A stretch of 64,000 nt of DNA from Eledone cirrhosa (taxonomy: Eukaryota): NCBI GenBank assembly GCA_964016885.1, contig OZ024742.1:305102001-305166000 (forward strand), in the 5' to 3' direction. Below the pieces are notes generated by a model that saw only the letters and a list, made by a program, of their open reading frames with translations, ran no database searches and was not told where the DNA came from. Of this stretch, positions 197 to 35,611 are shown one piece after another. Both the position numbers and the translations under genes were made by a program. Position 1 is the first letter of the stretch. Every line of letters begins with the position of its first letter.

Positions 197-438
197 AGAT
201 AGATAGATAGATAGATAGATATATTTCTTTATTTACCATAAAGGCATAAAAAGAAGGGACAAATACAAAGGTGGAGTTTACATACAATCGAGTAAAAAGG
301 GTATAAAAGGAAAATAATCGAAAATAACCTCAAAAGGGAGGGGACGTGATGGGGGTTGCACACACCCCCGAAAAAGTGTGCAATCCTTTTCCCGGGGAGC
401 ACATGGAGAAGGTGCTCCCCTCTCCTTCACTTCTTTAC

Positions 439-3400
439 CTACAGGATGGTATACAGAGAAGGCCCATTTACACGAGCCATTCTCGACACTATCACCCACC
501 TTTCATAAAACTGCCTGTGGCCAAGCACCTCTCTCTCCATTCTTATCCTTCTTCCGAAGTGATATCGGAAGAAGTAGACCAGACTATGGCCAGAGAGGAA
601 GTTGCCTGACCTCAGACCTGTCAATCGTGTCCACCAAACAACCTCTTTCAACATGGCTATTACGCACAGAAAAACCGCCTTTGCTTCCTTTGTGAAGAGG
701 GGAGGCGGTTTGATTGTCATCACGGACTCGGCGGTCAATTGAATCGGCGCCACCCGCGACAGCAGTCGTTCGGCGTAGCCCCACAGATCAGCCACGCCCG
801 GACATTGCACCAATGCGTGCGCAACGGTTTCTTCGTGACGCACGCATCTAGGGCAAATCTTTTTTGAGGTATCCCTGCCCGGGCGCCCGTGTCTGTAGAG
901 CCTCTCTCGAACGGGTAGAGCCCCCCGGTAGCACTGCCAGGCTAGTGACTTCTGGAAGTTGTCCATTGGTCCCGGGCCGAAAGTCCTACCGAACAGGCTG
1001 GCCAGTTCGTCCTCTTCCATGTCCAGCGATCTCTCCAAGGGTGTCATCGCCCCTGCTAGCCACCAGCCCTCTATAGAATGATGAGGTGGATTCTCCACCG
1101 AAGGCCTGGCCCGCTTGCCAGAGAGCCCTGAGCGCCTGAGCACACTCAGTGTGCCAGTCTCCCAGTTTTCCGGATCTTTGCTTGACCCAGGACTGCAGCT
1201 CGGTGAGCGAGACGAGTCTCGGGAAGGCTCGTTTCACGAACGGAGCCCACACTATCTCTCTCTCTCTCTCTCTCTCTCTCTCTCTCTCTCTCTTTTTTTA
1301 TCCCTCTCTCTATCTCTCTATCTCTCGGTTGACCAGTGAGGAATACCTGTAGGTGCCGTAGCCTTAATGCGTGCCTACGCATCATCAACCACGGCATCCC
1401 CAGCCCTCCTTTCGAAGGTTGTTGGCAGCAGATGGATCTTCTCACCATAGGAGGGCGCTTCTTCGAAAGAAATTGGAAGAGCATGCGTTCCATGGTGGTG
1501 AGTGTTTCCTTAGGGCAAGGCACGACAGTCAGGCGGTAGTAAGTGACGGACGCTATGTAAATGTTCGCCACCTCCGCCCGGCCTTTTAGGGACAGCTTAC
1601 ACTTGGCCCATTTCTGGGTTAGTGCAAACACCTTGTTCGTAACCTCGTCCCAGTTCTTTTCCACCTGGAGGTCCGGTCCAAACCAGACCCCAAGCAACTT
1701 TACCGGGCCCTCCGTCCAGTGTCCGACGACACCGTCGGGAGGCATCGGTCTGCCTCTCCACGTTCCGAGTTGCAGCCCGATGGATTTTTCCCGGTTCAGT
1801 TTCGCTCCTGACAACCTTTCGTAATCCTCCAGTAAGGTACCGATCGCCTCGATTTCCGAGTCGGTTGATACCATTACTGTTACGTCATCGGCGTAGGCCC
1901 ACACCGCTTTGCTCAATCCTGGTTCCAGGGGGATACCCTGCAACAACTCTAACTTCCTCAGTAAAGGCTCGAGAGTCAATACGTACAGAAGGGAGGAGCG
2001 AGGGCACCCCTGTCGAATGGATCGTGTGATTTCGAACGGCTTCGAAAGGTAGCCGTTCACCTTGATCCTAGAACAGATGTGGTTGCTATGTAAGGCAGTG
2101 ATCCAGCCTCTGAAAACAGGACCGAACCCAGCCGCCGCTAGCACCGCATCCAGGTAACCATGGTCGACCCTATCGAAGGCCTTAGACTGATCCAAGTTGA
2201 TCAGGGCCCCACCGAAGCCGGGTTTGTTGCCAACCCTCTCTATGATGTATCGCATGAGGTGGAGGTTATCGTGAATGGACCTGGATGGGATAGCACATGT
2301 CTGCGCATCTCCCACCAGGCTACCCACGACAAGCGCCAACCTCTTTGCTAACACATTGGCCAAAATCTTTAACTCTGTGTTTAGCAGGGTTATGGGCCGA
2401 AAATTATTTATACTATCCCCCTTGTTCTCGTCCTTCCTCACCAGCGAGACTACGCCCTTGGCTACAGAACAAAGAATTCTCCCGTTCTGCTGCCAATTGC
2501 AGTAGACCGCTTCGAGAAGTTCGGAGAAGAAGACCGGCATTGCTAAATAAAGTTCGTAAGGTATACCATCGAGACCTGGAGATTTGCGTCTGCTGCATTG
2601 GCTCAGCGCATCTCCGATCTTATCAGCCGAGATTGGTCCCTTGCAGGACTCTGCCTCTTCGCTCGAGAAACGCAGCAGGCCGTCGAGGTATGGACCGAAA
2701 TCCACGTCCCCGCCTGGACCCCCGCCTCCCCCGAATAATCGGGCAAAGTACCTTTGAAAGGCCTCGCACATCTGCTTAGGCTCCCGGATCACCCGTCCAT
2801 CCTCGTCTTGCAACGACCGGATGGTGGATCGATTTCCACTCTTAGCTTCTGTCACGCGGACCCAGCCAACGGCTTTGGCCCCCTCATTACCTAGAGCACG
2901 TATTTTACTTCGAATGACGCAGCCTTCGTGCTTTGCATCGAAAAACTGGTTCAAGGCCGTCCTCGATGCCAGCACTCTTGCCACATCTTCGCTCTTGATT
3001 GCCTCTTCTAATTTACCTGTTAATTCTTTCTCGTTTCTATTCCTATCGGCAGCTAACATCTTGCTATAACTTATTGATTCTGTTCTAATCTCTCTTTTGA
3101 GAGATGCCCACCATCGGTTGTTGACGATTGCACCCGTCAACCTCTCCTTAACTAATCTGCTAATCCGGTTTCTGTAAGTCTCTTTTGCCAGTAAAGACAA
3201 ATTAAGTTTCCAGTAACCGGGACCCTGTTTATGTGTTTTCTCGAGATTGACTACGCAGGTCACTAATTTGTGATCCGTGTAGCCAACCGTGCGCATTTCT
3301 GGACAGCTTAATATGTCCCTATCCTTACTTCTAACTAAGAATCTATCTAAGTACGATCTAGATTGACCACTGTGGTTTCTCCAAGTCCAGGTAGGCACAG

Positions 3401-3989
3401 TTGGAAAATCTAGTCGATATCTATCGACCAAGTTAAAACGGTCGAGTAACCCCTTGAGGCTGTTACACCCCCCTCTATTAGGACATGCTCCTGCATAGTC
3501 CCAACGTGCATCTAGGATGTCATTCCAATCCCCCGCTAGAAGCAGGGAACGCGACGTTCCCAGAAAAGTCTCCAAACGCTGGAAGAAGTCGTGCCGTTCA
3601 GCTCCGAAAGGGGAGTAGACGACGACCAGTCTCAAGGCCGCACCTTCACTACTGCCAACGTCTAGCACCAACAAACGACCCTCCGGGTCCGAGTGAACAA
3701 CCTGTACGGCAAGACCCAGGTGTTTTTGCAGCAGTACGACAACCCCAACCCCACCTCCAGGTTGACAGAGAGATGCATGCACCTCAAAGTCATCGAAGGT
3801 AGGGGTCAGCTGCCGCACGACGCTGATCCGAGTCTCACAGATAACCATTACATTTATACCACATGACCTGAGGTCATTTAGAAGCTTTGCTTGCTTCCAA
3901 GTTGAGCCCAGGCCACGTGCATTCAAGCATCCTACTCTTAACACATCTATGTGGGCGGCATCCTGGGGTTCGGGTCGCACGACTTCCAT
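439..3989 (-). pseudogene. ORF2 of copy A: APE endonuclease, reverse transcriptase and C-terminal CCHC; disrupted
   Basis: Motifs GCLNARG, GDWN, SYLDRFL, TDHKLV, KSPGLDG, NFRPITLLN, DQSKAFDRVDH, RQGCP, AYADD and CPRC..ETVAHALVQC. Broken by a 73-bp microsatellite insertion (1253-1325) and a 1-bp insertion near 1030, so it is split over ORFs 1146-3989, 986-1252 and 439-1143. Confidence 0.93.
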
Positions 3990-34700: not shown

Positions 34701-35180
34701 TTACCCGTTCGAGAAAGGCTCTACAGACACGGGCGCCCGGGTAGGGACCCCGCCAAAAAGATCTGTCCCAGATGCGTGTGCGACGAGGAAACCGTTGCAC
34801 ACGCATTAGTACACTGCTCGGGCGTAGCCGATCTGTGGGGCTATGTCGAACAACTGCTGTCAAGGGTGGGACCGATCCGGTTGACCACCGAGTCTATTGT
34901 AATGATCAAGCCGCCTCCCCCCTTCAAAGATGAAGCAGAGGCGGTGTTTCTGTGCGTAATAGCCATGGCGAAAGAGGTTGTATGGTGGACGCATCTGAAA
35001 GGACTGAGGTCGGGCACCTTTCTCTCTGGCCAACAACTGGTCCGTTTCTTCCGATATCATTTCGGAAGAAGGATCAGGATGGAGAGAGAGGTGCTGCACC
35101 CCAGCCGTTTCTATGAAAGATGGGTGAAAGTGGCGAGAATGGCCCGTGTGAATGGGCCTTCACTCTACATCAGACTATAG
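31743..35180 (+). CDS. ORF2 of copy C: APE endonuclease, reverse transcriptase and CCHC; intact, 1145 aa from ATG 31743
   Basis: LRVGCLNARG, GDWN, SYLDRFL, SDHKLV, KSPGLDG, NFRPITLLN, DQSKAFDRVDH, RQGCPLS, AYADD and CPRC..ETVAHALVHC; no stops. The ATG is in the context ACCAACATGG. Confidence 0.95.
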   Translation: MAMLRVGCLNARGLGSTWKQAMLLNDLRSQSINVMVICEARISSMRQLAPTFDDFEMHASLCQPGGGGGVVVLLQKHMGLATQIVHLDPGGRLVVLDLGSGEGRALRLIAAYAPFGTERPDFFQRLESFLGTSRSLLLVGDWNGILDARWDYAGACPDREGCNSLKGLLGRFDLADRFRLDFPTVPTWSWSNRSGSSRSYLDRFLVRNKDRDFLSCPEMLMVGYSDHKLVTCMVNLDRTHRQGPGYWKLNLSLPASRAYRNRISTLVKERLTGAIVNSRWWVSLKREIRVVSIEFSKVLAADRNRKERELIDRVEEAIRSGDVARVLASRTALSQFFDAKHEGCVVRSKIRALGNEGAKAVSWARVTEANSGTKSTIRSLRDLDGRAILEPKQMCEAFQRHFARLFGRGGEPVGNVDFGPYLDGLPRLSDREAKSCEEPISAAEIEDVLGQCGKRKSPGLDGLPYELYLAMPDLFPDLLEAVYCNWQQNGRIPCTVTKGVVTLVRKDENKGDEISNFRPITLLNTELQILAKVLAKRLALVVGNLVEDAQTCAIPSRSIHDNLHLMRYIIERVGNEPGFGGALINLDQSKAFDRVDHGYLDAVLAAAGFGPVFRGWITAMHSSRICSRVKVNGYLSEPFKIARSIRQGCPLSSLLYVLTLEPLLRKLELLQGIPLEPGLRKAVSAYADDVTVMVSTASEIEAVGTLLEEYEKFTGAKLNRDKSIGLQLGTWRGRPMPSDSVVGRWTEGPVKLLGVWFGPDLQVEKNWAEVTNRVFALTQKWASCKLSLKGRAEVANTYIASVIYYRLTVVPCPRETLTKMERALFQFLWKRRAPMVRRSICCQHPSKGGLGMPWLMMRKHALRLRHLYVFLTGQPVWASFVRRTFPRLVSLTELQSWVKQRPRKLGAWHTECAQALTALWQADPVISGDSTATFYRGLVRSRCDDALGEALDMEEDELASLFGRTFSPGPMDNFQKSLAWQCYRGALPVRERLYRHGRPGRDPAKKICPRCVCDEETVAHALVHCSGVADLWGYVEQLLSRVGPIRLTTESIVMIKPPPPFKDEAEAVFLCVIAMAKEVVWWTHLKGLRSGTFLSGQQLVRFFRYHFGRRIRMEREVLHPSRFYERWVKVARMARVNGPSLYIRL

Positions 35181-35611
35181 GTGAGGAAGATGAAAGACCA
35201 AGGGAGCACCCCTTCTCTGTGCTCCTGAGGAGAAGGGTTGCACACTTTTTTCGGGGGTGTGTGCGACCCCCCAAGGCGCCTCCTCTCTATTGAGGATTTT
35301 GTTAAAAATTTTATTTTTTGTTATATCTTATTTTATTTTTATATTTTGTTATTGCCTTCTCCTTATTGAGGACGCCTTTTTGTGTAAACTCCCCCCTTTG
35401 TACTTGTCCCACTTTTGATGCCCTAGTGGCAAATAAAAGAAATATATCTATCTCTCTCTATCTATCTCTCTCTCTCTCTCTCTCTCTCTATATATATATA
35501 TATATATATATATATATATATATATATATATATATATATATATATATATATATATATATATATATAGAGAGAGAGAGAGAGAGAGAGAGAGAGAGAGAGA
35601 GAGAGAGAGAG

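Follow-up and report, generated by a model that had tools for sequence, protein, structure and literature searches.

The locus described here raises the question of why several related retrotransposon copies adjoin the same microsatellite, (ATCT)n, always in one orientation, and of whether this repeat is a target of the element or a tail that it carries. The window, i.e., the whole stretch of 64,000 nucleotides that was analysed, belongs to contig OZ024742.1 of Eledone cirrhosa.

Copies and repeats in the window

The minus strand holds a tandem array of three copies. The first is the 5' end of copy E (1..196), a member of a further related family that extends about 5.7 kb past the window edge, joins ATCT at its own 3' end and, in locus L337, has ORF2 pieces with 84-85% amino acid identity to copy C. 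An (ATCT)6 target repeat (197..220) separates it, head-to-tail, from copy A (221..5168, with the 5' edge at about 5168), which is 5'-truncated within ORF1 and shows about 82% identity to C and 97% to a full-length A-type copy in locus L338; its ORF2 is disrupted by a 73-bp TC/TATC-rich insertion (1253..1325, no strand assigned) that does not occur in other A-type copies spanning that site. An (ATCT)19 target repeat (5169..5244) lies between A and copy B (5245..7341), which is 5'-truncated within ORF2, is 99.8% identical to C (5 mismatches over 2,096 nt) and has a (TATC)n repeat on its 5' side (7342..7385). On the plus strand, the full-length copy C (29723..35445) is located between an interrupted (TATC)/(TC) repeat (29671..29722), whose final few bases likely belong to the element, and an ATCT/TC target repeat (35446..35488). 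A 3'-UTR fragment of another GATA-joined subfamily on the minus strand (about 47138..47342), with ATCT at its 3' end and no TATC on its 5' side, is presumed to be the copy D of an earlier note on this DNA, which concerned 197..35469 and gave no coordinates for D. A repeat search of the whole window was dominated by (TA)n.

The earlier note had placed A, B and C correctly, and its description of an AATAAA signal plus GAAA(T/C)AT joined to (ATCT)n in one orientation holds for the copies in the window; on their 5' side, A, B and C likewise adjoin (TATC)n in the sequence. The two 25-mers around C (29698-29722 and 35445-35469), from which a target duplication had been read, are indeed identical. 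As a length measure this 25-bp duplication is rejected: the 25-mers sit within a 14-bp-periodic repeat and their closing CT also precedes GGG in most full-length copies (24/34 end ATCTCT), so that the true duplication length at C is unreadable.

In copy C, ORF1 (29938..31718, plus strand) contains a CCHC knuckle and probable RNA-binding domains and carries a frameshift caused by a 7-nt deletion near 31086, the product of intact copies being 592-597 aa long. The motif CX2CX4HX4C is visible and the Pfam match to zf-CCHC is weak (E 0.05), while the same search of ORF1 gave no Transposase_22 match; the atlas look-alikes carry zf-CCHC (0.92) and, as a lead only, the ZCCHC3 RNA-binding domains (0.89). 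ORF2 (31743..35180, plus strand) is open over 1,145 aa from the ATG and comprises an APE endonuclease, an RT with the YADD motif and a C-terminal zinc finger, with Pfam matches PF03372, PF00078 and PF13966; the endonuclease retains its catalytic motifs undamaged, and the domain is alignable to an L1-EN scaffold. Among solved structures the RT is closest to L1 (L1 ORF2p E 4e-49 vs R2 E 5e-19), and its nearest named protein is from Argonauta hians (67%). The APE-RT-zinc finger order, together with two L1-group traits, truncation (68 copies among 140 distinct ends) and duplications of variable length (7-17 bp), places the element in the L1 group of non-LTR retrotransposons. Membership of the Tx1 clade, whose ORF1 is of the RRM/CCHC type and not Transposase_22 (PMC5203782), is likely; protein searches returned no named Tx1, Kibi or Koshi reference among their matches. 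Of the 46 full-length copies, 17 have ORF1 and ORF2 intact, and copies are up to 100% identical to one another, which bears out the recent activity proposed for the family.

The 3' terminus (35415..35445, plus strand) consists of a small GCC-N5-GGC hairpin, AATAAA and GAAATAT, with no poly(A). In the hairpin the C-G pairs are invariant and two G-C to A-U swaps occur; the covariation is weak, and the hairpin is a lead only because its two-sided pair count is matched by 292/500 shuffles. The contigs of four sequencing runs, compared with the 3' kilobase, yielded nothing on transcript end positions.

Target sites and insertion point

The tally of flanks over the whole genome, proposed in the earlier note, was carried out on the 3,387 exact 3' ends of the B/C family, of which 2,909 (86%) join ATCT, 2,085 (62%) join ATCTATCT, 352 (10%) join ATAT and at most 126, reverse orientation included, join neither ATCT nor ATAT. 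In a background of 400 kb of evenly spaced genome sample, ATCT starts at 0.43% of positions, ATCTATCT at 0.008% and ATAT at 3.4%; the association with ATCT is confirmed as far above chance, and from these counts each available ATCT site is used about 66-fold more than an ATAT site. The greater abundance of (TA)n and (CA)n was also found in this sample, where their arrays make up 4.76% and 0.95% of bases vs 0.047% for GATA, the DNA covered by (TA)n being about 100 times that of (GATA)n. ATCT is joined by 26/30 ends of the A-type family, and in the B/C family TC runs are present only beside TATC. Poly(A) is practically missing at the B/C ends, in agreement with the tailless ends noted previously: among the 38 ends in which GAAA is followed by three non-T bases, only 2 carry a further A.

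The claim that (TA)n flanks none of the copies stands for the four in the window and fails genome-wide, where (TA)n is a minor target. In the same way, the preference for (GATA)n held and its strictness did not: specificity is loose, 14% of the B/C ends not joining ATCT, and the preferred motif, approximately CT^ATCTAT, leaves room for insertion at (TA)n and comparable sites.

The insertion point is readable at 14 sites, hand-picked by eye from 15 (L014, with a 4-bp duplication by eye, was left out); here the duplications measure 7-17 bp, all open at T^A of the top strand, i.e., are preceded by T, and no repeat is added. The bases upstream of the junction are CT at 11 of these sites and TT at 3. 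Duplications were found at unique and at minisatellite sites. At L231, L232, L289 and L116 the flank does not start with ATCT and none was added, the first three matching the repeat in the first two bases only; at L110, L116 and L289 the local minisatellite continues in the 3' flank. Tail-bearing LINEs of the RTE, CR1 and L2 type add an encoded 3' repeat at unrelated sites, and no such addition was found at any of these five loci.

Choice of the repeat and its alternatives

Sister families in the same genome end in (ATT)n; the GATA and ATT branches share 69% ORF2 identity and both include intact copies. In quick trees of about 360 columns, built with only unnamed or unannotated proteins and leaving out L198, L063, L132, L330 and L284 (long or partial rows) as well as 20 distant database rows, the GATA families group together in a single clade (SH-aLRT 97) nested inside the ATT families, and monophyly of the ATT group, which was defined after a first tree had been seen, is rejected (p-AU 0.003). 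This nesting implies an ATT-to-GATA switch, and a single origin of the GATA preference, in an ancestor that targeted (ATT)n, is likely. Eleven endonuclease positions separate four GATA from three ATT representatives, one being S/I at 194, in a hairpin loop tied to target reading (PMC1950540). A metagenome scan for relatives confirmed none. It is conceivable, as a tentative extension, that these families belong to an undescribed octopod Tx1-like LINE radiation in which one branch passed from (ATT)n to (ATCT)n via few endonuclease changes, aided by target-derived RNA ends; if true, the code by which APE endonucleases read microsatellites could become solvable by residue swaps between intact branches.

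Taken as a whole, the reading that we consider probable is that of a LINE lineage, likely of the Tx1 clade and active until recently, inserted in one orientation in (ATCT)n and CT^ATCT sites, likely via a nick preference of the APE endonuclease, which may by itself set the GATA choice. The endonuclease would nick the bottom strand at 5'-AGAT^AGAT-3', a position that is ambiguous because of the shared T, and reverse transcription would begin there, while a second nick about 12 bp off would produce the target duplication. Since full-length copies in (TA)n still begin with 8-13 nt that resemble TATC, the transcript would begin a few bases upstream, inside the repeat preceding the donor. The RNA would then continue past AATAAA to include (AUCU)n; by pairing with the nicked primer, this repeat would set the start of copying at the element end and leave any poly(A) uncopied. 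RNA-target annealing has precedents in R1Bm and SART1Bm (PMC7265360). As insertion duplicates the target, later copies would land next to earlier ones.

A competing account, rather unlikely in our judgement, assigns the site mainly to RNA-DNA pairing: a loose endonuclease would cut at T^A and only primers pairing with the read-through (AUCU)n would be extended, and the ATT-to-GATA switch would therefore need no enzyme change. T^A is in fact the sole feature common to all readable junctions, a tenth of the ends join ATAT, and L231, L232 and L289 were used with a match of two bases; moreover, 3' repeats have been proposed to steer the sites of RTE elements (PMC6007223) and annealing helps SART1Bm (PMC7265360). 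However, the unpaired upstream bases (CT or TT) are also conserved, no RNA-derived ATCT is left at the four non-ATCT sites, fixed amino acid differences of the endonuclease follow the target class, and the Tx1L endonuclease is sequence-specific by itself (PMC1950540). Sequence data alone do not separate endonuclease choice from RNA-primer pairing; direct swaps can do so, because two closely related intact branches of one genome use different repeats.

That (TATC)n is merely an element-encoded tail and insertion unspecific is very improbable in view of the 5' flanks, sampled from 140 distinct ends (68 from 5'-truncated copies) in a set enriched for atypical 3' flanks. In at least 40 of the 68 truncated copies TATC lies no more than 20 nt from the 5' junction, vs 0.47% (about 0.5%) by chance, and this is evidence of a target because a copy that has lost its 5' end cannot bring a 5' repeat with it. 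A further 9 duplicate another sequence and 3 sit in (TA)n; in the other 16 the aligned 5' edge is free of TATC, of TA and of any duplication, some of these copies being visibly disrupted later and others unexplained. These 16 copies fit a tail, as do the few TATC-like bases that full-length 5' ends themselves bear; against it stand the TATC-flanked truncated copies and the 3' flanks that carry on a local minisatellite. The microsatellite is the duplicated target, as the earlier note had maintained, on account of the 5' TATC in truncated copies, the sites without added ATCT and the duplications read in unique sequence and in minisatellites.

Microsatellites can expand after an insertion. Broad insertion followed by retention or repeat growth only in GATA-rich places, through selection or such expansion, would recall the passive accumulation near repeats described for Waldo-A/B (PMC3812793). 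It is just as improbable as a tail, since copies of up to 100% mutual identity share a junction that is oriented and exact to the base, and since sister families of the same genome choose a different repeat.

Relation to known elements

The presence of Tx1 elements in microsatellites is a general idea about twenty years old; new here are the (ATT)n-ended sisters and the nesting of the GATA families among them as one clade. A literature search, whose reach ended before the tables of Tx1 targets in the figure and supplements of PMC4494074, found no GATA-targeting family, and there is a smaller but appreciable chance that a Repbase entry with a GATA target already exists. Microsatellite choice by APE-type retrotransposons has been described as poorly understood (PMC3812793). 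A GATA-seeking insertion system is added to the known site-preferring retrotransposons, and in the Eledone cirrhosa genome GATA repeats often serve as landing sites of retrotransposons, a point relevant to marker design and assembly.

Waldo and Mino belong to the R1 clade and Dong to the R4 clade. These elements, which target ACAY, AC and TAA, respectively (PMC3812793), and the NeSL-related Togen, which targets (TG)n (PMC4640811), share microsatellite targeting but represent other clades, and none is listed at GATA; the TAA of Dong is of the same repeat class as the target of the ATT sisters. In the text of PMC4494074, the Tx1 clade includes Kibi at (TC)n and Koshi at (TTC)n in teleosts and crocodilian families at (TTCC)n/(TTTC)n, likewise APE-type LINEs preferring a microsatellite. 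They are set apart by their described targets from the present lineage, with (ATCT)n and its (ATT)n sisters; in fact, 2,909 + 352 of the 3,387 ends are ATCT or ATAT. The same text takes one sequence type in >20% of flanks as target preference, a level that both ATCTATCT (62%) and ATCT (86%) exceed.

Tx1L of Xenopus has the same domain layout and its specificity is credited to the APE endonuclease, but it uses a single site in the Tx1D transposon (PMC1950540), whereas the motif of the GATA lineage is a short repeat and is leaky. R1Bm and SART1Bm are also site-specific APE LINEs, whose RNA anneals to the nicked strand through a 3' sequence resembling the target; in contrast, they are R1-clade insect elements of rDNA or telomeres, and SART1Bm leaves a poly(A) tail (PMC7265360). 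Human L1 has a similar APE-RT-zinc finger ORF2 and its nick, too, falls on a T^A step, within 5'-TTTT/AA (PMC1950540), while the GATA lineage differs from it in the missing poly(A), the CCHC-type ORF1 and the repeat-specific insertion.

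Insertion target of the LINE lineage

The LINE lineage represented in the window by copies B and C generally ends at ATCT (the repeat also read as TATC or GATA). A search of the 3.0-Gb genome with an exact 20-letter pattern matching the 3' end of B and C gives 3,387 hits (reversed control, 0); ATCT follows 2,909 of these ends, ATCTATCT follows 2,085 and ATAT 352, and at most 126 are left for all other continuations, the opposite orientation included. The background per strand position is 0.43%, 0.008% and 3.4%, respectively, and array coverage in 40 evenly spaced 10-kb stretches of the genome is 0.047% of bases for GATA, 4.76% for TA, 0.95% for CA and 0.38% for TC. 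With this comparison of 3' flanks and microsatellite abundance, which an earlier note had suggested, a real and genome-wide GATA preference is well supported, and it is close to certain that insertion prefers sites at all. The first 30 B/C ends along contig C1, taken unselected, all begin with A and join ATCT in 26 cases; ends of the A-type family, to which copy A of the window belongs and in which it is counted, join ATCT in 26 of 30 and ATAT in 3. Where GAAA is followed by three non-T bases (38 ends), only 2 ends have a further A, so that poly(A) is essentially absent, as the earlier note had claimed.

The pool of 140 distinct B/C ends, whose GATA share is lowered because 50 loci had been deliberately chosen for unusual 3' flanks and ends with identical flanks were merged, comprises 68 5'-truncated, 34 full-length, 30 unresolved and 7 rearranged copies, and 1 that is too short. 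In 40 of the 68 truncated copies TATC is found no more than 20 nt from the 5' junction (chance, 0.47%); of the others, 3 are in (TA)n, 9 show a duplication of another sequence and 16 show none of these features. At 14 sites chosen by eye for a readable flank, the duplications measure 7–17 bp and are always preceded by T (CT at 11, TT at 3), the 5' junction often showing microhomology (1–6 bases); four of these sites begin with ATAT or ACCT, and no ATCT is added there. On both lines of evidence the ATCT repeat is, as the earlier note had proposed, a pre-existing target and not an element-encoded tail, with a preferred site of about CT^ATCTAT. Full-length copies in (TA)n (L061, L063, L091, L093) keep 8–13 TATC-like bases before GGG; the 5' junction of a full-length copy such as C is thus weak evidence alone.

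Several insertions that arose independently (loci L006, L018, L045, L119, L162) have one and the same non-coding dispersed repeat, ending in TATC, on their 5' side; target sites are thus also supplied by another repeat family. At L015/L016/L106 (G000:C3, ~279.84 Mb) a full-length copy adjoins a fragment of the same family in inverted orientation, and the two share their 3' flank, which looks like a 5' inversion or a nested rearrangement.

Proposed insertion mechanism

Insertion is exact and oriented, at T^A in ATCT-type sequence; the duplications are short, poly(A) is essentially absent, copies stack in tandem, and some are young and intact. On the bottom strand the endonuclease (APE) domain would cut at AGAT^AGAT, which like the L1 nick is a T^A step; reverse transcription would begin at the last bases of the element, and the duplication would come from a second nick at a distance of some 12 bp. 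RNA cleavage normally occurs 10–30 nt downstream of AATAAA, which lies only ~8 nt from the element's end, so that the RNA would include some (AUCU)n. This stretch could pair with the primer, skipping poly(A); target-like RNA pairs likewise in R1Bm and SART1Bm (PMC7265360). Such pairing might itself be the main selector of the site, which we consider unlikely; targeting led by the enzyme, with help from the RNA, is the probable course.

Copies in the window and their coding capacity

Three large copies of the lineage lie within the range covered by the earlier note: A (221 to ~5168, minus strand; ~82% identical to C), B (5245–7341, minus; 5 mismatches to C over 2,096 bases) and the full-length C (29723–35445, plus). 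Positions 1–196 are taken up by the beginning of another related copy, E, and B, A and E therefore stand head to tail, with only (ATCT)19 and (ATCT)6 as spacers; a presumed copy D (~47138–47342), a 3'-UTR fragment, has ATCT at its 3' end only. The 3' ends all show, as described before, an AATAAA-like signal and GAAA(T/C)AT, then ATCT. The 25-mers flanking C, from which a target duplication had been deduced, are indeed identical, but owing to the 14-bp-periodic repeat around them and two bases that most full-length copies have before GGG, they give no duplication length.

Two arms of 185 bp (29538–29722 and 35570–35754) make up a local inverted duplication with copy C in its middle; they are 96% identical and 99% outside the repeat, other genomic copies of the arm being only ~78% alike, and without C the site would form an almost perfect palindrome around (TA)n. 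Copy A is 97% identical to a full-length relative elsewhere in the genome, and its ORF2 is interrupted by a 73-bp TC/TATC-rich insert (1253–1325), opposite in orientation to the element's target and without duplication; the other A-type loci that cover this position lack it. Older broken fragments of related ORF2s (44–67% aa) occupy 39918–40686 and 57925–59254 (minus), with no recognisable 3' end found in them, and a long tandem repeat spans 11421–12994. ORFs at 15951–16508 (+) and 42691–43167 (+) presumably resemble, by their motifs, the C-terminus of an RTE-type reverse transcriptase (RT) and a Penelope GIY-YIG nuclease.

ORF2 of C is open (1,145 aa from ATG) and contains APE, RT and C-terminal zinc-finger domains; its top relative of solved structure is human L1 ORF2p (E 4e-49) and its nearest named relative an Argonauta hians protein (67% across the RT). 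Unnamed ENA proteins come next at about 50%, then turtle and fish proteins at about 40%, which makes an octopod host likely. The unnamed ENA proteins P0002, P0006, P0009, P0010 and P0152 (~1,150 aa; ~40% relative to ORF2; as many as 732 members per cluster) are the sister group of this lineage. ORF1, frameshifted in C by a 7-nt deletion near 31086, has a CCHC knuckle (weak Pfam match, E 0.05) and CCHC/RRM proteins as look-alikes in the protein atlas. Among 46 full-length copies, biased to young ones since they were selected as best matches to the ends of C, ORF2 is open in 29 and both ORFs in 17; the latter are 96–100% identical (median 99.2%), two on different contigs being 100% identical, in agreement with the recent activity previously claimed.

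The endonuclease region of C (~31700–32500) is 88% identical in aa to that of L078-type copies, the remainder ~99%, which suggests that subfamilies have exchanged endonucleases; ATCT follows both types. Most of at least 8 different family heads (loci including L006, L007, L079, L173, L176) have a splice-donor-like GTAAG(T) ~30 nt into the element; in C it is at 29752–29757 and again across the ORF1 stop at 31715–31720. Sequencing runs X4, X5 and X6, labelled as three other organisms, contain 55–66% of sampled words of the 3' kilobase, and X6 a 711-nt piece with 5 differences from it, through either related species or contamination.

Known systems and ATT sister families

Insertion works as it does in Kibi and Koshi and in crocodilian families at (TTCC)n/(TTTC)n (PMC4494074), and the B/C lineage does not share their targets. 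The portions available of PMC3812793, PMC4640811, PMC8869645, PMC10088271 and PMC6007223 name no GATA target in their lists of microsatellite-targeting LINEs; octopus L1-Tx1 elements are described as abundant and active, with no insertion target named, in those of PMC13282606 and PMC8967140. No GATA-targeting LINE family was found in the literature search, Repbase and Dfam being outside its reach. What is probably new is the target, microsatellite-seeking LINEs being already known as a kind, and the usefulness of the lineage is raised by its ATT sister families.

These related elements, found in the evenly spaced genome stretches, end in (ATT)n and form two families, whose 3' patterns occur 9,913 and 2,169 times; among the ends fetched, ATTATT follows 18 of 20 in the first family and 10 of 15 in the second, and ATCTATCT follows none. 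ATT targeting is less well shown than GATA targeting, since few 5' junctions are resolved. A few ends continue into (CTT)n, and 6-kb tandem arrays are frequent (L132, L154, L288, L290–L336).

The C-type ORF2 and an intact ATT-type ORF2 are 69% identical. A quick RT tree with 20 rows places six GATA-type rows, including L124, which ends in ATATCA instead of ATCT, in one clade (SH-aLRT 97); the sister of this clade is one ATT family, another ATT family and the Argonauta protein lying outside. The ATT group was named after a first tree, and a constraint that joins its four rows is rejected (p-AU 0.003). Four GATA and three ATT representatives, one of which is degraded, are consistently distinguished by eleven endonuclease positions; position 194 is within the hairpin loop, as placed by alignment to an L1-EN chimera, a loop tied to target reading in PMC1950540. 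All families have in common a small hairpin, GCC-N5-GGC, upstream of AATAAA, for which covariation support is weak.
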